A stretch of 64,000 nucleotides of DNA from Trypethelium eluteriae (Eukaryota): NCBI GenBank assembly GCA_051942245.1, contig JAVECL010000008.1, forward strand, positions 1 through 64,000. Direction: 5' to 3'. The position numbers and the translations under genes were made by a program. Shown here piece after piece: positions 15,177 through 54,858 of the stretch; positions within the stretch are counted from its first letter, which is position 1; every line of letters begins with the position of its first letter. The notes beneath the pieces are model-generated. The model searched no databases. It saw nothing but the letters and a program-made list of their open reading frames with translations, and was not told the DNA's origin.

Positions 15177-15302
15177 TCCGAGTTGGTCTAGTGGTCATGA
15201 GTGAGCGCTTCCAACACCCTAATGTATTCATCGCTAATTCGTATAGTTTCCGCTTGTCATTGTCAAGCGCGGGAGACCGGGGTTCGATTCCCCGACTCGG
15301 AG
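15177..15302 (+). tRNA. tRNA-Asp(GTC) with a 46-nt spliceosomal-type intron (15201-15246) and an 8-nt canonical-position intron (15260-15267)
   Basis: Acceptor TCCGAGT/ACTCGGA plus G73. T-arm CGGGG-TTCGATT-CCCCG. Anticodon stem TCCGC/GCGGG with GTC at 15256-15258. The D-stem closes only after 15201-15246 is removed. Confidence 0.9.
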
Positions 15303-15303
15303 G

Positions 15304-15313
15304 TTTTTTTTTT
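15304..15313 (+). terminator. RNA polymerase III oligo(T) terminator of tRNA-Asp
   Basis: T10 run starts 2 nt after the discriminator base. Confidence 0.8.
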
Positions 15314-15594
15314 CTTATTCTTATTTTTACTGCCGCTGTGGTAGGTCGAGTTTAGCTGCGGGGTAAAAGGGGCATTATTTCAGTTTTTACCCAACTGCAG
15401 CAAAAAACACCGAACTATCCTGGTATAACTTTGGACAATTATCAACACACTTAACAATCCAACGCCGTACATGTGTATCTTTCCAGACTCCTTCCACTCT
15501 GCACCAAAGAAGCATCGGTCCAGAGTTAAGTAAAAAAGAAAAATTCTTTCTCTACTTTTACAGAGGGAGGGAAAAGCAAAAAGAAATGGTTGTG

Positions 15595-15778
15595 TAGTCA
15601 CTACGAGGATCGAACTCGCGACCTTCTATAGAATTAGGAGTGCGTTTTTAAGGGATAGTTTGGGAGGAGAATCACCTTGGCGTCACAGTTATTATTAGCA
15701 CCACCTATAAGATGTTAGATTTGCCTAAAGAAAAGATCTCCTGGTACTTACGCTCTAAACCAGCTGAGCTAAGCGACT
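15595..15778 (-). tRNA. tRNA-Ile(AAT) with two spliceosomal-type introns (15705-15751; 15623-15675) and a 9-nt canonical-position intron (15684-15692)
   Basis: Spliced sequence AGTCGCT TA GCTC AGCTGGTTTA GAGC G TGGTG CT AAT AA CGCCA AGGTC GCGAG TTCGATC CTCGT AGTGACT A folds as a standard cloverleaf. A T5 run lies downstream. Confidence 0.88.
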
Positions 15779-17039
15779 GTTGATTCTCTGCAATGGTTTC
15801 ATAAAACACTCTATAGTAAAAATATCTCTCCTCTTTAAGCCTCTTCGCTATCGGGTCAATATTACCAGTTGGAAAACCCCCCCCCCGCCACATTGTACTA
15901 TCAGGCAGTGATATACCTTCACAGTTTGAATTTAGGTGCGGAGTAATAAGGACTGTGTTTTACTTTCTACATAACTCTTATAAAAGATTTACAGCCCCTT
16001 ATTATATAAATCAGGAAATATTTTCTTGAAAGAGTATATTCTTTAGCCGATTTACCAGAACACAGATTACCAGCAAAGGACTTAAAGTCGCGGATAATAA
16101 GGCCGAAAACGGTAGCTGATTCACCGGAACATTGGAGCAGTTGATCAAGTAATAAGGACGCACTTATCTAAAATTTGGTGTCAACAGCATTCTTGTAACT
16201 TATTCATGGTAAATCCAGCTTATTTGATAGAAATAGATAGTAACATCATATGAACGAAGGCTCGACAAGAAATTACGCTTTTAACAGGGAGGTCTAGATA
16301 ACTGTGTCCTTATTCCCTGTTGGGGCACCCCTCCACCGTAAGGTCCCTTGTGTACCGTAGACATGTGACCTGAATCTAATGAATTTTTGGTTGTTTAGGT
16401 AACGTTGTTTCTCTAGGATCGTGAGCAGCTAGTCGTAAAATTTGCGTCGAAGTCGGGCTGGAATGGGTGTATCCAAGGAATACGCCATAATTGCAAGATC
16501 AACAAAAAGACATTCTGGCAGCTTACCTTCGGGTTTTCAATAGACAATCAACGCGGGATAGGAGCCTCGCGATCTCGTTACCAGTCTTGAAGAACAGAAA
16601 TAATGGGTGTTCGCTCAACACCCACCAGAAAACAAATAAAGCCAAAAATCTCTTCTTCCAATCAGAGAAAACATACTCCACAAAACCAAATAGAAAAACT
16701 TCCAATCTCGCTCCATTATATAGGAGTCGTGCATAAGCTACATTATGTGTGCATAACTGCAGGTACAGTATCTCTGGGCCAATTAGCACCGGTTCAGAGA
16801 CCGGGTACACACTATGCTTGCGTGGCATTCCACAATGTCGAACCATACAGCAGTCAATCAGCTTACTCGACGAATCCAAGTCTGCGAGATTCAGCGCAGT
16901 CATGTGCTTTTACGAAGTTGTTGCCTCAGAAAGTTGGTGTTTTGGTAAATCTGCTACCAATTTCGGCCCAACTAGCTGCTGCTTTATGTGCCTCCGCATG
17001 TAGAGTCCAAGTACAGAGCAATGGACACCTTGTTCCATC

Positions 17040-22325: not shown

Positions 22326-25300
22326 ATGGGATCATTGAAGGTCAGGGGCCAACTCTCCGATAAGCTGCGTGGAAAACTAGTAGAGAGCAAATTCGATAAA
22401 ACCCCGTACGAATTTGTCCCGCAAGGCGCCTTTGACGACATCTTCTCGAGAGTGTCAATCATGGAAGCGATGAATATTACGCAGTCTAATGATGCGCTGG
22501 TAGATTTCGTCTACACAAGGGCACGGAAGGTCTTTGCTACAATGGCTTACATCGAGCCAAAAAGAAAATTTCTGAAAATGGCTATGTCGTGGTTCTTCAA
22601 GAACAACTTCCACGATAGAAAGCTACCCATCGATAAGTGGTCTGGCAAAAAGTTCCGAGACAACGAAGCGAAAGGCATTCTGCATCCTTTCGCATCAATG
22701 GAAGATACCGTCGAAGACGAAGATGATCGATTCTGGACTACGACCAAGATATACGACTTCCAGGAGGCGCAATTCAAATTCCTCGCGCCTGTGTTCTCGA
22801 CAGATAAGCCCAGTCACGATCTTTGGAACTGCACCATACCTTTCGAGGCGAAGGACGTCACCTATGCCGAGGGCTCGTTCGGCACGGTATCTAAATATAC
22901 GATCCACAGCGATCACGTTCAGGATCCAATGAAATCGGTAAGCCAATCATCGCAAGTGGCCATTTACCGGTCTCCACGCTGACACACTGTAGGACGCTTC
23001 ATATTCCCATGCTTTCGCTGTCAAGGAGCTCAAGGTCGATAATGACCAGGATCGCCAAAAGGTGGCCCGAAATTGGGCGTCTGAGGTGAAGGCCATGGCG
23101 ACGATGAATAAGCTTGACCATAAAGATCACATCGTCCGCTTCATTACCGCCTTTCGTCGCGGCACGCCGGAGGAACCAGAACATTACTTGATCACCGAAT
23201 GGGCGGATGGTGGTAATCTACACGATCTGTGGAAGCAGACACCCAGACCCCAAGAGACGAACTTGAACGTTCAAGAGGTGATCAAGCAACTATTGGGGCT
23301 TGCAGAAGCCTTAAATGCAGCTCACTTTCTGTCCGATGGACGTGCCTACAGTGGTGCATCGTATCGCCATGGGGATCTCAAACCGGCGAACATTCTGTGG
23401 TTTAAGGAGAAAAGCAAATTAGGCACACTCAAGATTTGTGATTGGGGCTGTGCCAAGAACAAAAAAATTGTGACTGCTATGCGCCACAGCAAGACTTCGG
23501 CTGAGTACGGCACTCGACGCTACCAGCCTCCAGAGATTGAGACTGGAATGAGTTCGATGCTTCCGGGATCCCAAGAGAAGCGGATTTCTCGGCTATACGA
23601 TATTTGGTCCATGGGCTGCATCGCTCTCGAATTCATCGTATGGCTTCTTTACGGTATCGATGGACTGGAAATGTTCAATAAAAGTATGAAGGGAGATATG
23701 AGCGACGGCTCACCATTCTATCAATTAAGCTATGTTGGGGGTAGGAAGCTGGCCAGAGTCCACAATATCGCTACATATTGGATGAATCACATGGCCGAAG
23801 ATCCCGCCTGTAGGGTCGGTACTACCGCCCTTGGTGACCTTCTCGAGATCGTCCAGAGAGGTCTTCTGGTTGTAAAACTCCCTCGGAGAGGAGGTACCTT
23901 TGCCGAGAATGGCTTTCAACGACCTTATATAAGCCCTCCTACGGCGCGGCGACACGGACTTGGTAGTGGTGAGATCCATAGCGAGTCAGCGCCCAATTGG
24001 ATGTCGACCACCCAGGGAAGCCCTTCAGCAACCGTCCCAGAGATAGACTTATCCTCAGCAGGGCTACCTGAAGATGATTTGGAACCGCAGTTCGGTATGG
24101 TAGGACCCGAACGACTTCGTGCTGACCAGCTGCGTGACAGGTTGGATCATATTGCGACAGCGGACGAAAAAGAGAGCTACTGGTCTACAAAGCCAGGGCG
24201 ACCGGTCTCTCACATTCCCACACATATATATTCCGATGAATCAGTTCCTGACTCTCTCAGCAGACCTATACAGGACCAGGTAGATTACGACTATCCCAAG
24301 CTTGACCCTCACCACTGGGGATTTGAAACGGATAATAAGCTTGCGACTGAAGTTTTCTCTATCTTAAAAGATAACGACCACTTTCCCATTCCTAGGACCT
24401 GCATAACATCGAATCTTTGCGGTGAATGTACGAGACTCCGTGACGGCTTGTGGGATTTGTTTTTCGAGATCTCCTATGACCTAGACAGCCTTGAGACCAG
24501 GGGCAAAGCTCATAAGTGCGACCTGTGTGGTTTGCTCTGGAGAACATGCGAAAGGAATTGGGGGACAATATTTGACAAAGTTCGGTTTGAGAGATCTGGA
24601 TGCTCGTTGACAATGAATGGCGGACGCCTTCCTGTCCTCTCAATTTTCCGCGATATCGGTAAGTCACACATGACACCTTCAAGGTGTTGATTTGCAAGCA
24701 CAAGCTGACTTCAAGTCTCTAGACTGCAAGAGTCCAGCAACTGCAGATCTTCAGATTGGATTTGCGGAGCTTCCAAAGGCTGGAAGTCCGACGCACCTCG
24801 AAGTAGTTCGCAAGTGGCTCCACGATTGCGACCATCACCACTGTACATCAACATGCAAACCAACCCAGCGAGAAAATAGACTTGCATCCGGTACGTCAAC
24901 ACAATTGCCTACCCGGCTCATTGATGTTGGCATCGATGGCGACCATACGGTCCGCCTTTGGGAGACGAATTCCCAGGATTTCGTTACCCAGGATACTGGA
25001 GGATGGATTTCGTTATCTCATCGATGGGGACTGCGATCTCACCTTTGCACTACATCGGACAACGTTAGAGAGCATCTCACGGGAATGAACCTAGAAGCGC
25101 TACCTGCTACATTTAAGGACGCTGTTCTGGTCACGCGCGCCCTTGGGCGGCGATATCTCTGGATTGACTCAATTTGCATCATTCAAGAGGGAGACCAAGC
25201 CGATTTCGAGCAGGAAAGCAAGTGCATGGAAGATGTCTACAGTGGCGCATATTGTGTCATCGCAGCCACCTGCGCCACTGGTCACAACTCTGGGTTTCTC

Positions 25301-26358
25301 AAGCCACGAAGCAAGAGAGACTATGTCGCCCTTCGCCGCGAAGCTGAGAGCGAAGCGCCGTTCTATGTATGCCAGACAATCGATAGCTTTCAAGAGCACG
25401 TGCTGGAAGACACTTTGAATAGTCGCGGCTGGGTGTTGCAGGAGCATGCACTTGCCCGTCGAACCGTCTTCTTCACGGAGCATCAGACGTACTGGGAATG
25501 TAGCCACGGCGTGCGATGCGAGACTATGACTGAATTACGCAAGTAAGTAGATTCGCGTCATTGGACTTAATGATCCTTTTGAGATAACTGATACCAACAT
25601 TGCATTGTAGTGTGTCGGCGCAACTGCTAGGAGATCCTAACTTCCCCCAGATTCTCGAATCAGCCCCCCAGGGGGAGAGGATCATTCGTTATCAGGAGCT
25701 TTACCAGATCTATTCACGTCTAGGTCTTTCAGACGCTTCAGATCGACCCAGAGCTATCAACGGCCTCGAAAAACGACTGCTGCGCACCATGAACGTGAGA
25801 GGTGGTTTTGGGATATTCGATGCGGGTTCAACTAAAGGACTACTTCGCCGAAGTCTCTTGTGGCATCGGGGATCTGACACACCCAGTTTGACTCGCATCT
25901 CATGGATCACCGTCCCATCATGGTCTTGGATGGCCTACGCAGGTGGGAAAGATACGAATGGGAAAGAATTTCCTGGAGGAATCAACTATTTCCAACTGAG
26001 CTTTAATGGATTCGATTGGGAAGATATTGAATCGCCGTGGTCGCATCCCAAGAATGGCGAGTCAAGCGATAAGCTTATCGCCAAGGTTCGAGAGTTCAAG
26101 CAGAGCGCCGCACGAACACGTGAAGATTATCTCATGTTCGACACTCCTGCAGACACGAATAGAAAGAATGCCAAGTGTATTATCTTAGGGATTCAAAAAG
26201 GCCCGATAGCCTCAAGTGAAAAACGACATTACGTTCTCGTGGTCGTTCCAACGGTCCGTTTCGATGATAAAAACACCAGGATATATGAGAGAGTTGGTGC
26301 AGGATATCTACCTGGAAGATGCTTCACCGACGGTTCTGTGCTGGCCAGCATTCAATAA
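22326..26358 (+). CDS. Protein kinase-HET domain fusion protein (~1281 aa); 4 exons
   Basis: Exons 22326-22937, 22993-24658, 24723-25542 and 25611-26358 join in frame. Kinase motifs EGSFGTV, FAVKEL, HGDLKPANILWF, DWG, YQPPE and DIWSMG. HET motifs LPTRLIDV, LSHRWG, YLWIDSICIIQ, VYSGA and RGWVLQE. Confidence 0.92.
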
Positions 26359-32439: not shown

Positions 32440-33269
32440 TAAGGGAGGTTCGACCCTTTGAGGCGTTATCGTTTGTGTATGACTGTGACATGCCATCCAC
32501 CCAGAATCTGGAGGCTTTTATCTCGCATTCAGACGCTCGTGCGTGTATCGATACCCGGAGACAGCGTCTTTAGTTCGGGAATCACACATCTATACCACAA
32601 TGTCCCTGCCAATGCTTTGCTTGGTGAAATGCAGTTATTTGCTGGAAGAATGGCGCTGAAACTCCGTAGAGTAGAACGTGGTATTAGGATGAACGACGAC
32701 GAGGTGTGCTCGACCAAGGAACAAAATGGTAAAAGCATGAGGAAAAGCCGGGGAACATCATTTCGCAGTGAAACGGGAATCTAATTTATAAACCACAATG
32801 TCCACACAATGCTTACCCAAGGGAAACTCTCCATTCGATTATGGTAATTCACTGAAGCATTATCGGTGATTGCTGGTACTACGAGGTGAGTAGTGTGTCA
32901 GCGAGGACGGTTAGATAAAGACGATTTATATAGAAAAGAGAGGGTCAATGCAAACAGAGTACGGAGCAAACTACATGGAACTTTTCAATAGGAATCGCGG
33001 GGAATACTTCGATCTAAGCATCCCGAAAGCGGAGCTTGTTCGATACGAAGTCCAGTATCTGCACGTACACGGAGATGCAGACATCGAGAACAGAATGAGG
33101 AGTACAAGACTGCGACAGACAGGTTCGTCTCATCATGGATGGGTGTTGAGTCCAGATTACCCTTCCTTAGCTGCAGCAGCCCACTCACAAGCTCTTCTTC
33201 CCCCTAGGCATCCTCGCTAGCCAGTATAGAGCCAGCTAGGAGTAAGCAAAGGAGACGGTCGCATCTACA

Positions 33270-35375: not shown

Positions 35376-36710
35376 GCATGGTGCTCTTTAATACCCCGAT
35401 CAGGGGGTTCAGGAGTAGGCATTGTCGGTGATGATACCGGTAGGGCGAGCTGGGAAGGCGTTTACTAGAGCCTGGAGACAGGAGCCATCTCATACTCCCT
35501 ATAGTTCATAGCATCTCAGAGCGTTGAATAGATTGACTGTCGGTCCGCTTGGAGATAATAGCTTGCTTAAATGAAAGAGGGCTGTTATATACAGACTTGA
35601 GCGTGACGGTGCAATCACTTGTTCGTGTAAACATGTATCTCTCTGCCAATGCTCCCATGAAACCGAGTCTGGATCTTGCAGATTGTATCCGTGCAAGTAG
35701 ACTCTCAAGCTACGGAGGAGAGTTACGGTCATTGGACAAAAGTGTCCGCGTGCTCGTATGGGAGATTTGGTGAGGGTTGCCTGAGGACCTTTTTCGTAGA
35801 AGTCCGCACCACTCCGTGCACGATCCACCTCCGTGCACGGTGGGACGCGTTTCATCTCCACAGCTTCATAAGGCTATAATTCAACAACGAACTGCTTAAT
35901 AAACTAGATAATTAGATAGATAGATAGTAGAGAACTAGAAAAATCGAATGCGCTATTTAATTTACTCCATAGACTGTTGTGGTAGGCGAATTTCGCGCTG
36001 AGAGCGCGAAACACGAGAAATTACCTCAACCACCAGAGATTTTACCTCTGCAGGTGCGACTTCCGAATTAGGCTGTTTTGAGGCCTTCTGTGTTTTTGTC
36101 TGCTTCTGTTTATAGTGTTTTGACTTATTTTGAAGCTGTTAAGCTGCTTGTTTTGCTTTAAAAAAGTCCTGCCGAATCTGAGCTTTTTTAGTTTAAGCCT
36201 GCTGTCGCCAAATTTGAGCTTCTTCGCGCTGTTGCTTTTGCTGCTGTTTCTCCTGCTCTTTAATCTGCCTATTTAATTATAACTGCTTTTTTTGAGCTGC
36301 TTTTTGCTGTTTTTGCTGTGCTTTTTCCTCATCTAAACGCTTTTATTTATTGCGAAATAATTAAACCTTTATAGGGGTCAAAATTTGAGCCTTATTAAGC
36401 TTATTATTAATAAATACTTTTTTATTTAACTGTTTGGTGTTCTTTTTAGTTATAGCTTACTAAAAACCCTTATTTTTAGCGCGGAGAAGGCTATTCTCTG
36501 CTTAAATAGTGTTAAGAGATTAAAGGAGCTTTTTTATTACCAGATCTTTAGTTTAGATAATAACTTGTTGTAGCTTAAATAGATTAAGGGGAATTTAAGG
36601 TATAAGCTTTATTAAATTGTTTTTTAATTTTAGAGATAATAATTACCGCAGTATGCCTAACACGCACTTAGAATTAAACAGTTAAAGCCCTACAGCCTCC
36701 CATCTACTAA

Positions 36711-39700
36711 TGTTACGAACGCTCCTGACCAAGGACGCGTTGGAAGTAGCCACTACTTGTAGTGCACCAATCGCGTAACACTAAGCGCGTCTCACAACAG
36801 GGGTAAGCGAGGACGTGGTATGGACACCTCAACCATCTCGCAATGAGATAAGCGAGATTTTACCTTGCAAAGAGTGAGATAATATCTCGCCCTCCTTGCT
36901 GCAATATTAATAAGAAAAAAGGCTGTAATAAAGAAGGAATAAATATTTAAGGAACTGGATTTTAGGCACACTTTTATTCTTCTTTTTGCGTTTTATTACT
37001 ATTATTATACCCAGCTGTACCTATAATTAGTTATAAGCCAAATTAAATAAGACCTTATTTATTATTAAGTTGTTTAAAGCTTAGTAACCCTTTTTACATT
37101 ATTAAATCCTTAATACTCCGCTCTTATGTGAAAACTCCTGAGACCCTTTTATGTACCTGCTACAAGCTGCGCTTATACCAGGGGGTATAGGCTTATAACA
37201 TAATAAAACGCCCTTAAGGATGAGTTAATTAAGATCCACTCTGCGGCTGGAGTCCCGCATTAAAGCCCTATTAAAGGAAGGCAAGGTGGGATAACCTAAT
37301 AAGTACTTTAGGGAAAGAAGTAAGTTGGAAGAATGGCTATGCTAAATCCAACTTTACTTCTTATTTAAAAGAATTCTAAATAATTAATAAACCTTAATAG
37401 CCTTATTATACTTAAGAGGATAAGCCCAATACTGGATAAAACCCAAATTAACTTTATATTTTAATAACTTAAAAAACCCTAATAATCTTTTTGTAAGATT
37501 CCCTTAATTTAAGAAAGAGCTTAAATAAATTTTTGGGATTTTTAATAAAGTTAAGATAGCGGAGTAAGCTGTTTAAAATTTAATATAAAAAACTTTAATA
37601 GCGGATTATGCAGCTAAGTTCTAAAAATATTCTAACAAATTAGAATGGAATAATAAAGCATTACAACCTATGTACTGGAGAGAACTTAAAAATAATATTA
37701 AGGATAAGCTAATATATTATAGTGGCTTTATTAACACATTGCAAGAATTTATTAATGCCTTAATTAAACTGAATAATAAACTTTACGCAAGGCGTATAAA
37801 AAAGCAATTAGCCCTATACATTCCAGTAAGAAGGATTAAAGGAATTACTTAGCATTACAGTAATAATAAACCAATAAAAGGAGTTTAGTACTCCAACCTT
37901 GCGCAAAATAAAAAGGAAAAAAGTGCTTAAACAAAAAAAAAATACTATACCTATAGAAAATTAGGGCATATAACAAGAAATTATTAATCCAAGAATAAAG
38001 TGGATCACAAAAAAGAATTTAATATAGTAACCTAAGTCCACCTAAGAGAAGATAAAATTATTATTAACAAACCAATAAGTAATAATAATATTAAGAACTT
38101 AAATATTTTCCAGTATTAAACAATCAACAATAAATCCAATGCAGAGGAAAAAAGTGCTTTATAAGAAGAAGTTATTAACCCTATAAATAGCTAAGAGGAC
38201 TTATAAGCACCCACATACACAATCCAAGGAAAGGAAGCAACTCAGGACAAACACAAGAATTATGTGCATTTAGTATTAAAAATAAAGGATCACCCAGATT
38301 ATTAACTCCTAGGATAATGCCTACTGCAAGAATGCAATATTTATAAAATGTATGTAAGTGTAAAACCTAAACTTTTACCAATTATGTGGGATTAAAAGCA
38401 AAGGAACTTCTAATATTAAAAAGAAGTCCATAGACTCTCATAATATCCCAACTATAATTAAATAATTGGATAAGAGGAATGTTAAAATAATGCGTGTCTA
38501 AAGTATTAATAGGCAAAAAATTAGAATAAAAAAAAGTTATAACACTAGTTCCAATATTTTATAGCATGTGGGATAAGGAACTATAAATTTTACCAAAAAT
38601 AAGAAAGTAATTATAACTTATTTAATAAAAAATTCTGCAAAAAAAAGGAGACATGCTTATACTATAAACCAGGCAGTAATATAGCTTAAGGAAGGAGCTA
38701 ATCCCAATAAGGACTGTGTCCAAAACCGCCCTACAAACTATTTATGTGTAAAATAATAAGCTGGCTAAAATATATTAGCACTATGTGTGTTAAACACCGC
38801 CAAAAGTAAGCAGACTATTATGCAAAATATTAATGCAACAACCTAAATTATTATAAACATTGCTTAAATTATAAAAGTATAAAACCAGAATAGCAGGAGT
38901 GCTATAAAACTGCTAAGAAGATAAGGGAAGAAGAGGGAAAAATTAATAACTTCTTATAAAGGGGTTATAAGTAAGTTATAATATAACATCCCTTAGCAAA
39001 GCAATAATAGGATTGTTTAAAATTAAGGTTAAGATTAAAAATTAATAAATTAAAGCAATAATTAATAGTAATATATTAATAAACATAATAGCAGTAATAA
39101 CTACTAAAAGGATTAAACTTAATACCAAGGAAAAAAAAAAGTTATATAATTTATATAGAGCTACTGGATTATAACTTGCAGAATAAAGATAAGTGGATAT
39201 TAAAACAGAACTTATTTTCATAATTACGCAAGGGCACACTAAAGAAATCCAACTTAATATTATAAATCTAATTAGGTATAATATTATACTTAAATTACTA
39301 TAATTGCGGAATTATAACCCAGATATTAATTAGGAAATAGGGGAAATTACATTTTATAGGTGCAAATACAGCATTGCATGGGACCCCGGAGGAGCAGCGA
39401 ATTGCTTTAGGGATAAAATAAGGATAAGCTATAATGTGGCTTTAATATTAATAAATAAGGATAACTAAAAAAAAATAAACTAGATCCGGCGTATCTAATA
39501 CTTTAATAAAAGTAAAAGGTTAACTAAGGGATAACATAAAGCGTAAAAACGCTAAACTTATAATAATACCTCTTAAATACAAAAAGTATTTGCCACTCTT
39601 TAAGAAAGGGAGAGCAGACTAAGTACTGCCTCCATATTAACTGTGGGATTATAAGATAAAACTAAAGCTAAGGAAGCAACCCACTTTTGGACCTTTATAT

Positions 39701-42700
39701 CCTTAGTTATAAAAAGAACTAGAGATGCTTTAAGAATAGCTAAGAGAAAACCTTAAAAAAGGATTTATCCAAAAATTAGAGTTTTTAGCAGGACATCTTA
39801 TACTTTTTGTTCCTAAGAAGAATAAAAAACTGCGATTATGTATTAATTATCAGAAACTTAATGCTATTATAATTAAGAATAAGTATCCATTACTTAATGC
39901 GGCAGAACTAAAAGACTGCCTAACTGGAGCAAAGTAGCTTATATTATTAGATTAAAGAGATGCCTATAATTCTATCCGCATAAAAAAAGGTAAGAAATAA
40001 AAAACTGTATTTAGAATAAAATACGGACTATTTAAATCCTTAGTAATACTATTTAGATTAATAAACGCACCTACAACCTGTTAAGAATAGATTAATAATG
40101 CATTACGGCAATATCTAGACATCTTTATAATTGTATATCTTAATAATATACTAATCTATTCCAAAATAAAGGAAGAATATATAAAATATATAAAAATAGT
40201 ACTAAAATATCTAAAAAAAAGGAACCTTAAATTATTACTAAAGAAGTGTATTTTCCACTAAAAATAAATAATATTCTTAGGGTATGTAATAAGAAAGGAT
40301 TAAATTTAAATAAAGCCAGAAAAGGTATAATCAGTCTTAATATAGCTAAAGCCAACAAATATTAAGGGGGTTTAAAGTTTCTTAGGATTTATAAACTTTA
40401 ACCAACAGTTTATCCCTAAATATTCCAAGAAAGCAAAATTACTTACAGACCTTATAAAAAGTAAGCAATTATTCCAATAAGAATAGCCATAAAAAAAAGC
40501 CTTTAAAGTTATTAAAAAAGAGATTACAAAAGACCTAAAACTGATAATCTGCAACCCAAAGTTATTACTAAAGCTTAAGACAGATACTTTAGATTTTATA
40601 ATAAGCGCTTATCTCTTGCAATGGGTAAATAGGAAGTGGAAACTAATAGGATATTACTTAAGAAAAATAACTCCTGCTAAACTAAATTACAACATTTATA
40701 ATAAGAAATTGCTGGCAATAATAGCAGCAATAAAGCACTAAAGAGCGTATATAAAAGAAACACCCAAACTGGATATTTATACCAACCACAAAAATCTATT
40801 AATATTTATAACAACAAAATAATTAAACTAAAAACAAGTTAGATGGGCAGAACTCCTTAGACAGTATAAGTTTACTATATATTACGCACCAAAAAAAAAA
40901 AATAGAAGAGCAGATGCTTTAAGTTAATAAGAAGACTATTAAGGAAATAAAAAAGTGTACTAAGCAGTGTTTAAAAAAAAGAATAATAGCACTCTTAAAA
41001 GCATTTCCTAAAAGTTTGGATTAATTCTTAACATCTTAGAAGATAAAAATAAACAGTTCCTTATTATTACTTAAAAATTACAAATTTTAAATAATAAAGT
41101 TAACCATTATATTTAAAGATATCACAATAAACCGCGATATGGACATCCTAAAATAGCACAAACACTTAAGAATATATCTTAAAACTGCATTTTTAATAAT
41201 ATAAAATAAAAAGTCTAAAGTTATGTGGCAAAATGTGATTACTGTAAAAGAAATAAGCACAGTACCCAAAAAAGAAAAGGTACTATCTAACTAATTTAAG
41301 CACCAATAAGGCCTTAGGAGCAGATTATAATAAACTTTATTACAGACTTACCTGCGTTAAAGCATCTGGTAACCAGAGAGGTTTACACAGCAATCTACAT
41401 AATAGTATACAGACTGATAAAGTATACAATACTAATTCTATTTAACAAGAAATATGGAATAAAAAAAACAGCATAAATACTCCTTAAAAGAGTAATATTA
41501 TACTTCAGATTACCTATCTTAATAATATTAGACCAAAATAGAAGGTTTACAGCTAAATTCTTCCAAACATTAATAGCAAACTTAGGGACTAAAACTAAGT
41601 TATTAATAGCGTACTACAAAGAGACTAACGGATAAACTAAATGGATAAATTAGTTACTGGAACAATTTTTGAGATATTATATTAATAATCTGCAAAATAA
41701 TTGGGTATTATTATTACCTATAGCATAACTGTGTATCAACACCAAAGAATCCAGTACAACTAAGTTTGTGCTTATCTAAGGACTAATAAGATATATACCA
41801 TTATTAATTCAACTAATACTTATTAGAATAATATTAGCATTGGGAGAAGACTGTAGAAAAATAATAAGATTAGTACACAATAAAATGGCTAAAAATATTA
41901 AAAAAAGAAATAGGAAGTTAACTAAAAATAACAATAAAGTAAATAAACCTTAACTAAAGGAGGGGGATAAAGTATATTTACTTACAAAAAATTTGAAAAT
42001 AAAAAGACCCTACAAAAAATTTAGTGTAGTAAAGGTCAGTCTATTTATTATTAAAGAAAAAAAGAACAAAGTTAATTATAAGTTAAACCTTCCGCAGGAT
42101 GCTTAAGTCTACCTGGTGTTTTATTTATCCTTATTAAAATCAGCAGATAAAAGCATATTATATGCAGAAATATTTAGCTATAAATTAAAAAAAGAACATA
42201 AGTTTAAAGTAGAAAAAATTCTACAAAAGAAAAACAAAAAGTATTTAATAAAATAAAAAGGATATCCTAACTCAGAAAATACTTAAAAAACACAAGGAAT
42301 GTTATCCAAATATAGAGGAAAAATACAATAATACTTAAACTTTAAAAAAGGGGGAAAACCTACCCATAGCAATTATATCTTTAACACTAGCAAAAGTTTC
42401 TTATAATAAAAAAGAAAAACTAATAGCAGCAGCAGTAGCAAAACAGTTGTCCTTATTAACCACACCCTTATTTAGCTTATTAAGAGCATGTTTAGTTTTC
42501 TGTTTTGCGCATTCCTTAGCTTAATAAAGAATCTTTTTATAACGCATAAGGTGAGCAAGCACTTTGGCAAGCTCTTCCTTATTCTTTAACACTCTTTTAG
42601 CGTATTCCTCTTAAGTGCGATTAAGAGAAGACTATAATAAGTTTACACACAGTTTCCCTATTTTTACATACTTAGAACACTTAATATAAGACTCCATAAT

Positions 42701-43379
42701 AATGCAGATATAACCGCGGAGGAGGCAGAGGTTATAAGGCGACAGAATTAGGAGGCTAAAGTTTTTAATCTTTAAGGATAAATAGTGGCGATAAAGTTTA
42801 GAGGAAGATATCTTGCTAAATAAATAAAAGCGGGGTTACTTTTACTTATATTTTATGTAAAGACATGTAACTAAGGAGGAGGGGACTAATATTATAAACA
42901 CTCCTAACTAAGGACGCGTTAAAAGTAGCTATTACTTATAGTGCACCAATTGCGTAACACTAAGCGCGTCTTGCAATAGGGGTAAGTAAGGACGTGGTAT
43001 GGACACCTTAACCATCTTGCAACAAGATAAGCAAAATCTCACCTTGCAGAGAGTAAGATAACATCTCACCCTCCTTGCTATAATACCAGCAAGAAGGAAG
43101 GCTATAATAAAGAAGGAATAAATATTTAAGGAACTGGATTTTAGGCACACTCTTATTCTTCTCCTTACATTTTATTATTATTATTATACCCAGCTATACT
43201 TATAATTAGTTGTGAGCTAAATTAAACAAGACCTTATTTATTATTAAGTTGTTCAAAGCTTAGTAACCCTTCTTACATTATTGGATCCTTGACACTCCGC
43301 TCCTACGTGAAAACTCCTGAGACCCTTCTATGTACCTGCTACAAGCTGCGCTTGTACCAGGGGGTATAGGCTCATAACA
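36711..43379 (+). mobile_element. Full-length RIP-inactivated Ty3/Gypsy (chromovirus-like) LTR retrotransposon, 6669 bp
   Basis: 490-bp LTRs 36711-37200 and 42890-43379, TSD ACTAA, polypurine tract before the 3' LTR. RT remnants (YLNNIL for YLDDIL), then RNase H/integrase and chromodomain-like remnants (~42200-42290). Very TpA-rich. Confidence 0.93.
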
Positions 43380-46300
43380 ACTAAGTATATTTTTTAGTGT
43401 TATTACACGCTTAAATGCAGGCTAAAAGAGGTTAAAAAAGTTGTGTTTACCTAAATTATTAATATGCTATAAGTTATTAAGAAACTTGTCTCATTCTTTT
43501 AAGTAATAATGCGCAAGTGGATAGAAAAGTTTAATATCTAATAGCTAAAGCCTATAAGTTAAATAGGACGGGAATATAGCTAATATAATGCTGTATTTAT
43601 TGCTTAGGTTAATAAACTGCATATTATAATAGCTGCTGTAACTATTAATAATAAGTAGATGTAAATCTTGTCTATTTTTAGCCTTCTCTCACGTGTGTTG
43701 GTGGAATAGCTCCTGGAGCTTGTATGCTCTTTAGGCTTAAAATTATTAATCCAGCTATATTTAATATTGTTTGTTTTTAAGGCGTAGATAATATGTGGTA
43801 GTAAAGCTGTCCCATCCATACAAATTAAAGCAATTATTATAATCTATTTTTTTAAGCTATATTGGCCTACGCTGAGTAGTTTACTGTTCTCCTAAGCTTG
43901 GACATTAAAGACATGTTATGAGCCTATACCCCTGGTACAAGCGCAGCTTGTAGCAGGTACGTAGAGTGGTCTCAGGGTTTTCACGTAGGAGCGGAGTATC
44001 AAGGATCCAAGGGGTGTAAGAAGGTTACTAAGCTTTGAACAACTTAATAGTAAATAAGAACTTGTTTAATTAGCTTATAACTAACTATAAGGTACAGTAA
44101 TAATAATAAAATGCAAGGAGGAAAATAAGAATGCGCCTAGAGTTAGGTTCCTTAAATATTCATTAATCCTCCATTACAGCTCTCCTTCTTGCTGGTCTTG
44201 CAGCGAGGAGGGCGAGATGTTATCTTACTTCCTGCGAGGTAAGATCTCGCTTATCTCGCTGCGAGATGGTTAAGGTGCCTGTGCCGCATCCTCGCCACTT
44301 CTATTGTGAGACGCGCCTAGTGTTACGCGATCAGTATACTACAAGTAGTGCCTACCTCCGACGCGTTCCTGGTCAGGAGCGTTCGTAACATAAATAATCC
44401 ATATCTTGTTCTAAAAGCAGTTTTTTATTTCTTACCTTTTTTTATACGGATAAAATTATAAGCATCTCTTTAGTCTAATAATATAAGCTACTTTACTCCG
44501 GTTAGGCAGTCTTTTAATTCTACCGCGTTAGGTAATAAATACCTATTCTTAATTATAATAGCATTAAGTTTTTAGTAATTAATATATAATTGCAGTCTCC
44601 TATTCTTTTTGGGAATAAAAAGTATTGGATATTCTGCCAAAAACTCTAATTTTTAAATAAAGCCTTTCTTTAGGTTTTTTTTTTTTTTTTTTTTTTGCTA
44701 TTTTTAAAGCATTTTTAATTCCCTTTATAATTAAGGATATAAGGGTCTAAATATGGGTTGCTTCCCTAGCTTAAGCTTAATCTTATAATCCCATAATTAG
44801 TATAAAGGCAAGGCTTTTTTTGCCCTCCCTTTTTTAAAGAGTAGTAAGTACTCCTTATATTTAAAAGGAATTATTATAAGTTTAGCGTCCTTATACTCTG
44901 CACTATCCTTAGGTTGATTTTCTACCCTTATTAAAGTATTAAATATGCCAGACCCAGTGTTATTTTGATTATTCTTATTTATTAACATTAAGGCTATATT
45001 ATAGCTATTTATTTTATTCCTAAAGCAATTTACTGCTCCTTTAGGGTCTTATGTGGTGTTATATTTACATCTGCTAAACATAATTTCTCCTATTTCCTAA
45101 TTAATATTTAGGTTATAAGTTCTTAATTATAATAATTTAAGTATAATTTTATGCTTAATTAGGTTTATAATATTTAATTATATTCCCTTAATATGCCCTT
45201 AAGTTATTATAAAAATAAGTTTAGTTTTAGTATCCACCTTTTTTTGTCCTGCAAATTATAATCCAGTAGCTTTATATAAGTTATATAGCTTTTATTTTAC
45301 CCTAATATTAAGTCTAATTCTTTTTATAATTCTTACTGCAATTATATTAATAACTGTATTATAATTAATAATTGCTTTAACTTTTTAATCCTAAATTTTA
45401 ACTAAAATTCTAATTATTAAATTAATAATTTTTAAGGATGTTATATTATAATTCTTTTATCTCCCCTTTATAAGGAATTTATAGCTTTTTCCTCCTACAA
45501 TATTATATCCTTAAAAGTTTTATAGCATGCTTATTATTCCGGCTTTATCTTATTATAATTTAGGTAATATTTATAGCAGTTTAGGTTATTGTATTAATAT
45601 TTTATACAGTAATCTGCTTATTTTTAATAGTGTTTATAATATGCGATATTAACACATAATATCTAATTTATTATTCTGCATAATTATAAGCTGTATACAT
45701 CTCTGGGTGCCAGTCCTTATTTTATTTAAATATTTCCTTATTTAGGGTTGTTTAATCCATAATATGGGCAAGTTTTATAATTTTTGTAGAAATTTTTATT
45801 AAGTCTAATATATTCTTTTTCCTGCTTTTAATAATATTAGCAATTTAGATTATTATAGGCAGTAAAGTGTTATTATTTATGTTTAAGCTTCTTTTTTTAT
45901 TAATTTTTTTCCCACTAATATTTTTAATAATTATTATTTTGGCATTCTTCCTATTTGACTATTTAGTTATAATTAAGATATTACAAAAGTTTATGGACTT
46001 CTTTTTAATATTAGAAGTTTCTTTATTTCTATCCTTATATAATTATTAGGAGTTCTGGTTTTACCCCCATATAAACTGGGTGTATTTTATAATCTTATAA
46101 TTTATATTATTTCAGCAACTTATAATCTGGGTAATTCTTATTATTAGATACTAAATGCGCGTAAATTTTATATCTTTTTTAAGTTGCTTTTTCTCCTTTA
46201 ATTTTATATATGGGTAATTTTAAGTCCTTTTAGCTATCTGCAGGGTTAATAATTTCCTCCCATAAAGTATCTTCTTCTTTTGCTTTAGGTTTATTATTAA

Positions 46301-47101
46301 ATATTTAATATTAAAATATATTTAGTTTCCTTATATTATTATTACTTATTTATTTATTAATAAAGATTTTATCTTCTCTTAAATAGATTTAGGTAGCCAT
46401 ATTAAATTCTTCTTTATAATTTACTTTATTTTGGGATTAGCAGTTCCTTATTATGTGTCTGGTTTTTTTACATGCATAATTTTTTTTTTTATTTTAAGCA
46501 CTTTTTATCTTCTTACTTTATGCAAAATTAAAGTATTAAACTTCTTTTATTAATTTATTATTATTAAATTGGATATATTTTTTAGTTTATCTTATTAGGA
46601 TGTATGTAGCTAATTTTTTATTTATTTACCTTGTATAAAGCTTATTATCTAGTTTAATAAAGGCGCTTATAAGTTTTTATAATATATTAATTAAACCTTT
46701 ATAATGCATTAATTTATTCTTTATGTTATTTTTAAGCCCTTTTTAATACATAAGTTATAGCGCTTTATTATTTTATTTTAATATATTTAAGTACTCCTAA
46801 AACTTTGCTGCGTACTCTGCTGCTAAAGTTTTTTATACTATTTTTTAAACTGCTCTTTTTATTATCTTAACCTTATTAAAGATTTTAAAAATTTATTTAA
46901 GCTCTTTTTTAAATTAAAGGAACCTTATAAAAAAACCTAAAAGGTTTTTTTAATTATTAAGATATAAAGTTAACTTTAGTTTAACCCAGTATTATGCTTA
47001 TCCTCTTATGTATAATAAGGCTACTAAAGCTTATTATTTTTTTAGAATTCTTTTAAACAGAAAGTGAAGTTAAATTTAGTATAGCTATTTTTCTAACTTA
47101 T

Positions 47102-48084
47102 TATTACGAACGCTCCTGACCAAGGACGCGTCGGAGGTAGTCACTACTTGTAGTGCACCAATCGCGTAACACTAGGCGCGTCTCACAATAGAAGTGGCGA
47201 GGTTGCGGCATAAACACCTTAACTATCTCGCACCGAGATGAGCGAGATCTTACCTCGCGGGAAGCAAGATAACATCTCGCCCCCCTCACTGCGAGACCAG
47301 CAAGAAGGAAAGCTGTAGTGGAGGACTAATGGATATTTAAGGAGCCTGGTTCTAGGCGCATTCTCGTTTGTTCCTCCTTGCGTTTTATTATTATACCATA
47401 CTGTACCCTACAGTTAGTTATGAGCCTAATTAAACAAGTTCTTATTTGTTACAAGTTGTTCAAAGCTTAGTAACCTTCTTACACCTTTGGATCCTTGACA
47501 CTCCGCTCCTACGTGAAAAAACCCTGAGACCATTCTACATACCTGCTACAAGCTGCGCTTATACCAGGGGTATATGTTACGACCCAGCCGCGTCAAGGCT
47601 GAACGCCATCTCCTTTGTACTTGCTGCAAGCGTTCCACAGATAGGTCGTAACGAGCAGAGATCACGTGACTGATTAGTAGCGAGAAGCTACAGATCAGGA
47701 TAGAGCGATCTGGAGCGATCACCCACGGATCACAGGTTATCACACCGATCAACAGCGATCAATCAGAGATCAGTAGAGATCTGATCAGAGGAGGAACAGC
47801 TGTGATCGGGAGGAATCACAAGTATATATATGTAGGAAGGAATCAGCTTAACTAATTCCCTCGCGTTTTATTACCATACCAAACTGTACTTACAGTTAGT
47901 TACGAGCCAAATTGAACAAGACCTTATTCAGTACAAGTTGTTCAAAGCTTAGTGACCCTTCTTACATCATTGGATCCTTGACACTCCGCTCCTACGTGAA
48001 AAAACCTGAGACCCTTCTACGGACCTGCTACAAGCCGCGCTTGTACCAGGGGGTATAGGCTCATAACAGTATAGGCTCATAACA
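47102..48084 (+). mobile_element. Solo LTR inserted in the gag region of element 2, itself interrupted
   Basis: LTR sequence 47102-47574 plus 48074-48084, flanked by TSD CTTAT. Confidence 0.88.
47575..48068 (+). mobile_element. Variant or chimeric solo LTR (494 bp) nested in the solo LTR
   Basis: TG...CA ends and TSD GTATA. The 3' part matches the family LTR; the 5' ~280 bp does not. Confidence 0.85.
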
Positions 48085-50318: not shown

Positions 50319-50581
50319 TGACCACAACACCCCACTCTGCTCCGTAGGCAGCCTGCTGAGAGCCCTTAAGAAAAGTGATTAGGTTGAAAGAAATGCTCTC
50401 CTTCACCTGCTCTATCTTACAGCAAATCGTCCGCCACATGGAACATCAGTATCCCATCACAACTCCCTATCCGAATCGACTCTCCTCAGCACACCATACG
50501 TAAATGATACCCTGACGCCAAAGACGCTTGTAGCGCCGCGGATTCCCGGAGAAACATAGGCCTCCGGTTTATATCGCGGAG

Positions 50582-53500
50582 ATGCGTCTCCTGGAAATTG
50601 GCAGTCGTGGTGAGGTCAGCCTGACTGAGGATTATCATGACAACGTCCCTCGCTATGCGATACTGTCGCACACTTGGGGACCGGAGGAGGAAGAAGTAAC
50701 TTTCGAAGATTTGATCATGTCCAAAGGCCGGAACAAGGCGGGTTATAAAAAAGTCTCGTTCTGCGCGAAACAAGCCGAAAAGGACGGCCTGCAATATGTA
50801 TGGATCGACGCTTGCTGTATTGATAGGGCGAATCTTACAGAGCTTGCCGAAGCCATCGCTTCGATGTTCCGCTGGTACCATAATGCTACGAAATGCTATG
50901 TATATTTATCGGATGTACCGATCGGCGACTACAACAGTAGGTGTTACCAAGAGACGTGGGACCGAGCCTTCAGACACAGTAGATGGTTCAGACGAGGCTG
51001 GACACTTCAGGAGCTTATTGCTCCGCAATCCGTCCAGTTCTTCTCATCAGAGGGCACACTTCTCGGTGATAAGGAACTGCTCGAGCGACAAATCCATGAG
51101 ATCACACAGATTCCCTTGCAAGCTCTCCGCGGAGCCCCTTTATCTCACTTTAGTGCCGAAGAGCGAATGAACTGGACAATCGGACGCAAGCCTACACGTA
51201 AAGAAGACAGGGCATACTGCTTACAAGGAATATTCGGTGTCTTCATACCTCTCATCTACGGCGAAGGCGAGAATGCATTCAGCCGACTTCGGGGGGAAAT
51301 TAATAGATCGTTAGAAGGTACCATGCGCATTGCCTCTTGGGCTCCCTCACCAACTTGTTACCCTCGGTTTTTTGTCTATTATACTGATGTCCAAGCGTCT
51401 TATAGATGGGAATGCAGAACCAAACTCAAAACGTAGGAGGATTGAATCAAATATCCCGGACGACTACACTTCCTCCCAATCTGCGAAGAATGAATTACTC
51501 GATGCTTTGCGCTTCGACCAAATTGATGATCGCTTTATGAACATCAAGCCCGGTCAGACAAAGACTTGCAGATGGTTACTTCAAACGAAGGAATACCAGG
51601 ACTGGTTGGATACTGATAAGATCTTGGAATGTCACGGGTTCTTCTGGATTAAAGGAAAGCCTGGGTCTGGCAAATCAACATTAACAAAGTTTGCTTTCAT
51701 GAAGATCAAGGAATCCTTTCGCAACACCATTCTCCTATCTTTCTTCTTCAATGCTCGAGGTACCTATCTGGAGAAGACTACCCTAGGGCTATATAGGTCC
51801 TTGCTTGTTCAACTGTTAGAAGAATTTTCCGATGATCAGCGACTTTGGAACGCAACCGGTTTGACGTACCGGTCCTCCGACGATCAACTTAAGGCAAACC
51901 GTGAATCACTCAAGCATTTATTATTACAAGTGGTGCAAAAGTTGGACCAACGAAACATCATGATCATCATTGATGCTCTTGACGAGTGCGATGAGGATGA
52001 AGTGCGGGATATGATTTCATTCTTTGAGAAAGTTGGTGAAGACGCAATTTCTGACAGGAGGAAATTTCACGTCCTATTCTCCAGTCGACATTACCCCCAT
52101 ATAACGATCGCGCGATCAGTTGAAATAAAACTGGAAGATCAACAGGGTCATACCCAGGACATCGACAAATATGTTTCCAAAGAACTCAAGGCTGGACGGG
52201 GCAGGTACGCTGGACAAATCAGGCAAGAAATACGCAACAGAGCCTCGGGGATCTTTATGTGGGTTGTTCTAGTCGTGCATATTCTCAATAAAGCCTTCGA
52301 CCGTGGCCAAGTCCACGCTCTACAAAAAAAGCTTCGAGAGATACCGACTGATCTGAACGAACTTTTCCGGAGCATTTTGACTCGCGATTGTGAAAACTTA
52401 AACGAAATGAAGCTTTGCCTTCAATGGATTCTATGCGCTATTCGACCTCTGAAGCGAGAGGAACTTTACTTCGCAATATTATCTGGGATAGCATCCGAGG
52501 AATCTTTCCTTTGGGATCAGGACGCAATCTCCGTGGAAATGATGAATTTATTCATCCTTAGCTCCTCGAAGAGTTTGGCGGAAATTACAAAGTCAAAGGA
52601 TCATACTGTGCAGTTCATTCATGAATCTGTGCGAGACTTCCTCCTTAAAAAGGATGGACTTGCCCAAGTCTGGACTGATCTAAAGTCTAATCCAATCGGC
52701 CTAAGTCACGATAGCTTGAAAGAATCCTGCTACAACTACATGAGATCTGACATACCTCATCATCTGATTGTTCCAGAGCCACTTCCGGTAGCAAACTCTC
52801 CTCCCGCAGCCGAACTCCGCAGAGACGCATCACACAAATTTCCGTTTCTAAAATATGCAGTTCATCACATTTTTGCTCATGCTGATACTGCAGGTGCTAA
52901 AGGAGTCAGTCAAGAAGACTTCATGAAAGATTTTAAGCTTAATGAATGGATCCAGCTGAATAATATAATCGAAAGGCATGAGATCAGACGTCTAACCCCC
53001 AGACATAGATCTGATGTACATACTTGCTGAAAAGGACTGTTCCGATCTCATTAACATGCTGTTCTACGATACACCCCGTATACACTCTCCGAGGGCAAGA
53101 TACGGCAATCCCATATTTGCTGCTCTTGCGAACGGTAGCCACCAAGCCTTCGAAGTGCTCACCAAGCGAGATAGACAATTACATCCGAGTGGCTGCGAGT
53201 TTCCTTATCCGTGTAGCAACATTCATTCATTCTTAACCAGCCTACGGAAACCAACACTCTTATATCAATTTTTAGTCGTCTATAATATAGACCTGACTTG
53301 GCAATCCAAGGGCGGCCAGACACTACTTTCATGGGCTATGGAGGCTGGCTACGAGGAGATTGCCGAGTTACTCATTAACAAGAGCTCCTTAGCCGATGCG
53401 CGATCCCAAACTTTTAGCGATACCCTGTTCGCCGCACCGTCATGTGGTAACACTCGTATCATTACGCTATTGCTAGATAAGGGTACTGATGTCAATGCGC

Positions 53501-54858
53501 GAACTAGAATGAATGGCAAGACGCCGCTGTATGCGGCATCGGTACGGGATATTGAGAAGGCCGTGAAGCTATTACTAGAAAGGGGTGCTGATGTCAACAA
53601 ACAATGCGGACCTGATGGTACCGCGCTATATGCTGCCTCTTCGAGAGGTCACGCGAGAATAGTTGAGCTACTGCTGGACAATGGTGCCTATATCGACGCG
53701 CAAATCGAATTCGTCAATCACGTAACTCCGCTATATTCTGCATCTTCACAGGGTTATGAGAATATCACAAAACTGTTGCTGGATAGAGGTGCCGATGTCA
53801 ACATACAATGCGGAACTGATGGCACCGCGCTGAATGCTGCATTTGTGCGAGGTCATCAGGTGATCGTTAAGCTGTTGCTAGATTCGGCCGCCGATATCTA
53901 TACACGAGGAGCAGAATATGGGAATGGGCTCCCGGTGGCAATTGTGTATGGTCGCAGTGAGGCCGTCGAAGTCTTGCTACGCAGTGCAGCAAATGGTACA
54001 TTGCAGAGTTCAGAGTGTAGTATTGCGCTGCAGCTAGCCTCGGCACAAGGGTCCCTTGAAGTTGCGAGGCAAATACTATTCGGGAATTCGGGGCGATATA
54101 CCCTCGCTAATGCGCTGAAAAATCGCCAGTCTCTTTCCATTAAACCTTCGTTGGAAACGTACGAGGAGATTATCAAGATTCTGCTAGGTAGGGGCGCCGG
54201 CATCAGCTTCCAGATAGAGTCTGGTAGCTTCCTCAATAAATATCGCGATCAGATCACGAAACTGCTGCACAAAATCAGAGCTGAAGTTGATACGGGGAGC
54301 GGAGGCAGAGAAAGGGATGACGAGTCGCAGACTGCTATTGCGAGAGGTAACGAAAGTAGTACCTCGGAGTACATGTCACCAGACAACAGCATAGACGTTG
54401 ATAAACGAGACTGGACAGGTAATGCTACCGACAATCATGCCCTTCAAGATTATCAGATGCATTTGTCGCGCCTCGAGTTACGGAACAAGAAGCAGATGGT
54501 GAGCTGGACCCTCGAATCGCTACTATATAGTGGAATTGATGTGAATGCAGAAGGCGGAAAATTTGGCAATGCGCTGCAGGTGGCATCTTTGATGGGTAAA
54601 GAGGATTGTGTTCGGCTGTTACTTGATCAAGGTGCCCTTGTCAATGCGAACGGCGGAATTTGCGGTACTGCGCTACAAGCAGCATCATTGGCAGGCCGTG
54701 CGGATGTCGTCCAGATGTTACTCGATAGAGGTGCTAACGTTTATGCAAAAGGAGGAATATGTGGTAGCGCGCTGGAGGCCGCGTTGTTTGTTCGGGCCTC
54801 TAAGACACAATTTTCTTGGGTCTGCTCGTTGCAAGAATCTCGGTCCACCGCTCTATGA
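50582..54858 (+). CDS. Fungal NLR, HET-NACHT-ankyrin architecture, with an apparent +1 frameshift at 52996-53000
   Basis: HET: MRLL..YAILSHTWG..WIDACCID..RGWTLQELIAP. Intron 51318-51405. NACHT: WIKGKPGSGKST, IIIDALDEC, GIFMWV, FIHESVRDF. Ankyrin repeats (GTALYAAS.RGH..IV.LLLD.GA) follow in a different frame. Confidence 0.9.

Follow-up and report, generated by a model that had tools for sequence, protein, structure and literature searches.

Candidate spliceosomal introns beside canonical 37/38 introns in a convergent pair of ascomycete tRNA genes

Introduction

Spliceosomal introns are known from genes whose products are not translated. According to excerpts from PMC5855946, the U6 small nuclear RNA (snRNA) of S. 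pombe, which is a product of RNA polymerase III (Pol III), has a spliceosomal intron, and fungal U6 genes contain up to four of them, unrelated to one another (Tani and Ohshima 1989, 1991; Canzler et al. 2016, as cited there). The list of non-coding hosts in those excerpts comprises U1, U2, U5, U6 and rRNA and names no tRNA. Spliceosomal introns are also reported in the rDNA of ascomycetes, mostly lichen-forming ones (Bhattacharya et al. 2000, as cited in the excerpts from PMC5855946; excerpts from PMC8527467). The present analysis concerns a 64,000-nt stretch of DNA from Trypethelium eluteriae (positions 1 to 64,000 of contig JAVECL010000008.1, assembly GCA_051942245.1; hereafter the window), in which two convergent tRNA genes, tRNA-Asp(GTC) and tRNA-Ile(AAT), are each interrupted by inserts of two kinds: long ones that resemble short spliceosomal introns, and a short one between positions 37 and 38.

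Current descriptions of tRNA introns leave no place for the long inserts. In excerpts from three papers, the introns of eukaryotic tRNA genes are placed at N37/N38 and cut by the tRNA endonuclease (PMC10275265), a eukaryotic tRNA gene has one intron at most (the tRNAscan-SE 2.0 paper, PMC8450103), and the three nuclear intron types are unrelated, the spliceosomal ones being found in mRNAs as well as other transcripts of RNA polymerase II (Pol II) (a 2025 paper, PMC12530127). No description of a spliceosomal intron in a tRNA gene was found in the open-access literature and bioRxiv, and a paper in a subscription journal is possible. A match to the phrase 'spliceosomal tRNA intron' was discarded, the wording in full being 'non-spliceosomal tRNA introns', in a preprint on ciliates.

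The reading that we favour, with a probability of about 0.65, is that both are working nuclear tRNA genes transcribed by Pol III, and that, besides a canonical 37/38 intron, they would contain spliceosomal introns of the U2 type, of which Asp has one and Ile two. That the long inserts are spliceosomal, with a version in which Pol II makes the transcript counted in, appears likely, and we hold this with good confidence. The maturation of such tRNAs would probably depend on two splicing machines that have nothing to do with each other.

Results

Anatomy of the two interrupted genes

The tRNA-Asp(GTC) gene is on the forward strand and the tRNA-Ile(AAT) gene on the reverse strand, their 3' ends about 290 nt apart, within a 2.6-kb stretch devoid of long open reading frames (ORFs). 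As listed in Table 1, there are three long inserts across both genes (46, 47 and 53 nt), all of the form GT..CTAAY..AG, all outside the anticodon loop and all (3/3) flanked by the A-box region (positions 8-19) on one side and by the B box of the T loop on the other. The Asp insert separates D-stem positions 24 and 25; its putative branch-point A (15237) is 9 nt before its end, and one register only of its boundary is compatible with the mature sequence. The first Ile insert is located directly after the D stem, with its branch-point A (15715) 10 nt before its end; three registers yield the same product, and the insert is GT-AG at one of the three. The second Ile insert is in the variable loop and has its branch-point A (15634) 11 nt before its end, followed by tandem acceptors, a TAG ending at 15626 and an AAG ending at 15623. 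Here five registers yield the same product, with GT..AAG at one of the five.

The original prediction, made from the letters of the sequence, had placed three GT..CTAAY..AG inserts of 46-53 nt in two tRNA genes, together with a separate insert of 8 or 9 nt after position 37; the long inserts are there as described, and the short insert is present in both genes. It had also claimed that removal of the inserts would leave well-paired tRNAs. This proved correct: without inserts, and with G-U counted alongside the standard pairs, the Asp gene has 20 of 21 stem pairs (T13xT22 being the sole failure), a 4-nt variable loop and G as discriminator base, and the Ile gene has 21 of 21, a 5-nt variable loop and A as discriminator. 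Both spliced forms have stems of 7, 4, 5 and 5 bp, a 7-nt anticodon loop, a T loop of the TTCRANN type and a normal D loop. When the inserts were cut out by their coordinates in a script, ARAGORN called an Asp(gtc) of 72 nt and an Ile(aat) of 75 nt.

Standard tRNA finders had been expected to miss or miscall such genes, and on the raw sequence they missed them: ARAGORN gave no tRNA for the whole window, and Rfam gave none at gathering scores in the window and none at E<=10 around the locus (RF00005). A census of the motif GTTCRANNC, which is blind to any gene interrupted within the T loop, returned 18 matches in the window, 2 of which sit in a T arm with a full stem: those of the Asp and Ile genes. 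The recognisable tRNA genes of the window that carry GT-AG inserts are thus two out of two. A T-arm-like match at 32447 was considered as a further tRNA and rejected (three of four stem pairs, no tRNA context).

Table 1. Coordinates of the tRNA genes, their exons and inserts, nearby transcription signals and the mRNA introns used for comparison
Feature	Coordinates	Strand	Remarks
Deduced mRNA intron	3138-3071		frame-restoring
TATATAA	15140..15146	+	37-31 nt before tRNA-Asp; might serve as an upstream Pol III/TATA element
tRNA-Asp(GTC) gene	15177..15302	+	126 nt with inserts; predicted mature tRNA 72 nt; discriminator G at 15302
Asp exon 1	15177..15200	+	acceptor 5' strand, positions 8-9, D-stem 5' strand, D loop, three bases of D-stem 3' strand; A-box region
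Asp GT-AG insert, 46 nt	15201..15246	+	starts GTGAGC; CTAAT at 15234-15238; ends TAG
Asp exon 2	15247..15259	+	positions 25-37, anticodon GTC included
Asp short insert, 8 nt	15260..15267	+	at 37/38; anticodon stem (5/5) as outer helix
Asp exon 3	15268..15302	+	positions 38 to 73; T arm, B box
T10 run	15304..15313	+	Pol III terminator-like; starts 2 nt after Asp discriminator base
T5 run	15578..15582	-	terminator-like; 13-17 nt downstream of tRNA-Ile
tRNA-Ile(AAT) gene	15595..15778	-	184 nt with inserts; predicted mature tRNA 75 nt
Ile exon 4	15595..15622	-	positions 46-73; T arm, B box
Ile GT-AG insert 2, 53 nt	15623..15675	-	starts GTGATT; CTAAT at 15637-15633; variable loop at 45/46
Ile exon 3	15676..15683	-	positions 38-45
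Ile short insert, 9 nt	15684..15692	-	at 37/38; ARAGORN intron of 9 nt; anticodon stem 5/5
Ile exon 2	15693..15704	-	positions 26-37, anticodon AAT included
Ile GT-AG insert 1, 47 nt	15705..15751	-	starts GTAAGT; CTAAC at 15718-15714; ends TAG
Ile exon 1	15752..15778	-	acceptor 5' strand and complete D arm (A-box region)
Deduced mRNA introns, kinase gene	22938-22992, 24659-24722, 25543-25610		frame-restoring
Deduced mRNA introns, oxidase gene	57584-57521, 56857-56803		frame-restoring

The long inserts resemble the mRNA introns of the window

The long inserts had been said to look like the mRNA introns of this genome. For comparison, local mRNA introns were deduced as GT..AG intervals whose removal joins neighbouring long ORFs of one gene in frame. 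Six short introns obtained in this way (Table 1) are 55-68 nt in length, with GTAAGY, GTGAAG or GTAAAT as their first bases; a CTRAY is present 10-19 nt before the YAG in 5 of the 6, and none was found in 56857-56803, the one starting with GTAAAT. All three tRNA inserts have a GT, an AG and, in between, a CTAAY whose A is 9, 10 or 11 nt from the acceptor; their 5' sites are GTGAGC, GTAAGT and GTGATT, and their acceptors TAG, TAG and AAG. The comparison bears the claim out: inserts and mRNA introns agree in their 5' and branch sites, in the distance from branch to acceptor and in their size class.

How often would such signals turn up by accident? Among 2,000,000 random stretches of 46, 47 or 53 nt drawn from the window, 334 (1.67e-4) had a GT, an AG and a CTAAY located 5-30 nt from the 3' end. 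By simple arithmetic from that frequency, allowing the 1, 3 and 5 registers of the three boundaries, three such inserts would be met with a chance of about 1e-10: a fortuitous origin is out of the question. As to a repeat element, no second copy of any of the three inserts was detected in the window, the best extra match being 11 nt. As to group I or group II introns, the inserts are 46-53 nt long against a core of hundreds of nucleotides, and no Rfam intron family matched.

A second tRNA-Asp gene interrupted at another site

Metagenome contigs were scanned for tRNA-Asp with a pattern in which bases of the D loop, the anticodon and the T arm were fixed. Any 40-70 bases could stand between D loop and anticodon, and neither GT nor AG was demanded. 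The scan returned a single match, a tRNA-Asp(GTC) with which a contig of 4055 nt begins (L001 below). An insert of the GT..AG type emerged all the same: 49 nt with GTGAGT..GCTGAC..CAG, inserted after the GGT of the D loop, i.e. 5 nt upstream of the site in the Asp gene of the window. L001 also has a 15-nt intron at 37/38. In L001, positions 131-160 include a T5 and a T6 run within 30 nt downstream of the gene, a terminator layout like that of the window.

The 72-nt products deduced for the two Asp genes are the same at 64 of 72 positions, and the 8 differences make up both sides of the acceptor pairs 3-70, 4-69, 5-68 and 6-67, with all four pairs kept. The flanks of the two genes show no similarity. 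Each gene is continuous across the insertion site of the other, so each confirms the exon junction predicted for the other; the compensatory changes in the acceptor stem point to selection on the folded product and count against pseudogenes.

This bears on the possibility that both genes of the window are dead or dying copies interrupted by insertions, the tRNAs being supplied by intact copies elsewhere. Such a view would sit well with the rejection of both raw genes by standard finders, and with the weak 5' site and awkward tandem acceptor of the second Ile insert. We nevertheless judge it improbable. A decaying copy would not retain 20/21 and 21/21 stem pairs, and random insertions would not all come with a GT, a CTAAY at 9-11 nt and an AG, given the frequency of such stretches reported above. 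Save for the four compensatory pairs, the Asp product is that of an unrelated locus. Terminators are retained and T5 runs avoided in both genes, and one would have to assume that both recognisable tRNA genes of the window had died in one and the same unusual manner.

L001 also helps to judge a different decoding of the locus, in which each gene encodes some other tRNA and has a single long anticodon-loop intron. With introns allowed, and on excised, padded stretches, ARAGORN does propose such models: a Thr(tgt) with an intron of 49 nt on the forward strand and an Arg(cct) with one of 104 nt on the reverse strand. We rate the chance that they are right as close to nil. The Thr model has 2 standard D-stem pairs only, an intron at 33/34 and a pyrimidine at position 37, and on the whole window, where ARAGORN reports nothing, neither the Thr nor the Arg call appears. 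L001, whose exons are the same, is read by ARAGORN as Gly(tcc), which is inconsistent, whereas under the GT-AG reading both genes are Asp(GTC). The raw Thr, Arg and Gly readings were rejected for their poor D stems, the pyrimidine at position 37 and their mutual disagreement. A local pairing went into the spurious Thr model: GAGCGCTT, at the 5' end of the 46-nt insert in Asp (15203-15210, forward strand), can pair with AAGCGC (15266-15271), which spans the end of the Asp 37/38 insert, and ARAGORN made use of this pairing.

Whether the inserts of the two Asp genes are related was examined with MAFFT. Several short blocks align, with a global score at p ~0.04, against 0.003-0.03 for several unrelated intron pairs. 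Common descent of the two inserts, or their membership in an 'introner' family, is not supported. The 5-nt offset between the two sites may reflect independent gain or intron sliding.

Long and short inserts differ in their fit to the tRNA endonuclease

The eukaryotic tRNA splicing endonuclease measures its cut site from the folded tRNA body. By position, the 8- and 9-nt inserts fit the canonical class of 37/38 tRNA introns. They fit it also by a pairing: in all three short inserts, that of L001 included, the base at intron position -3 pairs with position 32, which is the pair required by a rule said to go back to work of Baldi and co-workers in 1992.

For the long inserts we looked for a bulge-helix-bulge (BHB) motif, i.e. 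two bulges of 3 nt on either side of a central helix of 4 bp, plus an outer and an inner helix, in registers within two bases of each boundary (13 in all). No such motif was present for any of the three: a full set of four central pairs never occurred along with both of the flanking helices, and the best case, with 3 of 4 central pairs, occurred at a register that would alter the product. It is thus hard to see the long inserts as ectopic tRNA introns that are cut by the tRNA endonuclease, or by another protein nuclease, and whose GT-AG look is incidental, in the manner of archaeal non-canonical introns or of those in the D and T arms of Cyanidioschyzon merolae. Eukaryotic tRNA genes with several introns and no part for the spliceosome do exist, at least 12 tRNA genes of C. 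merolae being of this kind. In the window, a BHB motif is impossible for 3/3 long inserts at any register that yields the tRNA, the sizes and signals of these inserts equal those of local mRNA introns, and an endonuclease route leaves the GT, the spaced branch consensus and the AG unexplained in the three inserts and in that of L001. We regard this route as very improbable.

Transcription signals

The A-box region and the T loop are uninterrupted in both genes, the inserts stretching the distance between the A and B boxes by 54 nt in Asp and by 109 nt in Ile; TFIIIC would be expected to tolerate such stretched distances. Inside the genes, T runs reach at most 3 nt in Asp and 4 nt in Ile, and terminator-like runs (T10 and T5, respectively) follow downstream. 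The original prediction had described this layout, namely intact A and B boxes, inserts lying between the boxes and free of any run of five or more T, and oligo(T) terminators, and it holds on each point. TATA elements are in use at fungal tRNA genes, and a TATATAA precedes the Asp gene (Table 1). A nine-C run (15866-15879, forward strand) precedes the Ile gene by about 100 nt. The layout of boxes and T runs fits Pol III genes under selection, without proving which polymerase is at work.

One could suppose that the inserts are spliceosomal while the tRNAs come from a longer Pol II transcript, spliced during transcription and then trimmed by RNase P and RNase Z to release them. Pol II is the polymerase to which splicing is normally coupled, a tRNA transcribed by Pol II is known (tRNA-Sec of Trypanosoma brucei, in excerpts from PMC2943599), and the locus is within 2.6 kb free of long ORFs. 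In the opposite direction, intact boxes, no internal T5 and a T10 or T5 immediately downstream are the layout expected under selection for Pol III, and U6 illustrates that Pol III transcripts can be spliced. The orientation of the genes is also unfavourable: as they are convergent, a single host transcript for both is ruled out. Transcription by Pol II is in our view unlikely, a little more so than the death of both genes considered above.

A possible maturation pathway and the points that weigh against it

Under the reading with Pol III and the spliceosome, maturation might proceed as follows. Pol III, acting from the intact A and B boxes, would transcribe each gene as far as the oligo(T) run, which would give a precursor of 130-190 nt. 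The spliceosome would recognise GTRAGY or GTGATT, CTAAY and AG and remove the 46-53-nt inserts, restoring the D arm and the variable loop. Only then would there be a cloverleaf body from which the endonuclease could measure the 37/38 cut; endonuclease and tRNA ligase would remove the 8- or 9-nt intron, and RNase P, RNase Z and CCA addition would finish the ends. Excision itself, the order of steps and the polymerase are all deduced from sequence. That this lineage may splice its pre-tRNAs with the spliceosome, and then with the endonuclease at 37/38, was the central proposal of the original prediction, and it is supported by the intron-like signals, the lack of a BHB motif, the pair at the 37/38 inserts and the gene found in L001.

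Several observations weigh against this reading. The exons are tiny: the first is 24-27 nt, and 29 nt, the 37/38 insert included, separate the two Ile introns. Uncapped Pol III transcripts are unusual substrates for the spliceosome. For Asp, the support of relatives comes from one gene (n = 1). For Ile, pattern scans of prokaryotic genome contigs and of viral contigs gave 0 matches, blanks that say little in view of the collections scanned, the metagenome scan having covered Asp; the Asp pattern likewise had 0 matches in the prokaryotic genome contigs, a blank that again says little. The second Ile insert raises a difficulty of its own. Its 5' site, GTGATT, is weak, without a G at +5, and a normal 5-nt variable loop requires use of the distal AAG, 3 nt behind the TAG. 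Use of the first YAG, which is the usual choice, gives a 78-nt Ile product with an 8-nt variable loop (3 extra bases).

Concerning the last point, the 78-nt product obtained with the proximal TAG is still called Ile(aat) by ARAGORN. It may be, and this is speculation, that the proximal TAG is disfavoured by its closeness to the branch-point A, which is 8 nt away. The tandem acceptors (15623-15628, reverse strand) could serve as a natural test of acceptor choice near a branch point.

Other features of the window

The proteins encoded in the window include an NPHP3_N/NACHT protein with ankyrin repeats, a kinase, FAD monooxygenases and a BBE-type oxidase; for one of the monooxygenases, the nearest protein clusters are all from Ascomycota. 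The first of these belongs to an NLR-type gene (50534-54858, forward strand), in which an NPHP3_N/NACHT NTPase is followed by ankyrin repeats; two short GT-AG introns interrupt the gene, one near 51357-51405 and one near 52894-53008. A 12-kb block (36001-48000) has 29-30% G+C, against 41-53% elsewhere in the window, and an AT skew of +0.13 to +0.15 that then flips to -0.15. A 17-mer containing GTTCAAAGC occurs at 43251, 47458 and 47940 on the forward strand and at 44040 on the reverse strand. The block looks like degraded repeats of the kind left by repeat-induced point mutation (RIP-like), or like transposon remains, in inverted orientation.

Discussion

A tRNA that needs both machines would break three statements found in the current literature: that tRNA introns are at 37/38 only, that a eukaryotic tRNA gene has at most one, and that the unrelated intron classes reside in different transcripts. 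If the reading proposed here is true, the U6 precedent would extend to tRNAs, which among Pol III transcripts are the most abundant class. It raises the question of how a spliceosome would assemble on an uncapped, highly structured RNA of 130-190 nt with exons of 8-35 nt. We put at slightly better than even the wider proposition that in a wide range of ascomycetes the spliceosome is a routine enzyme of tRNA maturation, which would act on one or two mRNA-type introns per Pol III pre-tRNA, gained repeatedly at differing sites of a given tRNA, and be followed by the tRNA endonuclease; translation capacity would then be wired to spliceosome activity. The same tRNA, with inserts at different sites in the window and in L001, would offer a natural system for the study of intron gain. 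Such genes are invisible to ARAGORN and Rfam, so that fungal tRNA sets, and the analyses of codon usage and tRNA adaptation that draw on them, would be incomplete; if the wider proposition is right, standard finders would systematically undercount fungal tRNA genes.

Compared with what is described elsewhere, the short inserts raise no difficulty: those of 8 and 9 nt are like canonical tRNA introns, and it is the three long ones that break the N37/N38 and one-intron statements. Nuclear tRNA genes with up to three interruptions, the D arm included, are also those of C. merolae, where the introns outside the anticodon arm are removed before the one inside it, as in the order proposed here. The difference lies in the nature of the inserts: in the literature on C. 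merolae the introns are treated as tRNA-type, with a link to the BHB motif made in excerpts from PMC3978253, while those of the window lack the motif and have spliceosomal signals. The introns of ascomycete rDNA share with the present ones a spliceosomal type, a host gene that is not transcribed by Pol II and an occurrence in Ascomycota, but they are in rRNA made by RNA polymerase I, without a second splicing system on the same RNA.

The likeness to fungal U6 covers more points. In both cases a small gene for a structured Pol III RNA has short introns with canonical 5', branch and 3' sites that are otherwise unconserved, there may be several introns per gene, and their sites differ among species. 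Two differences should be kept in mind. The host is here a tRNA and not a component of the spliceosome, so that an origin by reverse splicing at the catalytic centre does not directly apply; and a tRNA precursor also needs the tRNA endonuclease and ligase. To conclude, spliceosomal introns in genes for small non-coding RNAs are known, and what would be new at this locus is that the hosts are tRNAs and that a canonical tRNA intron stands alongside.

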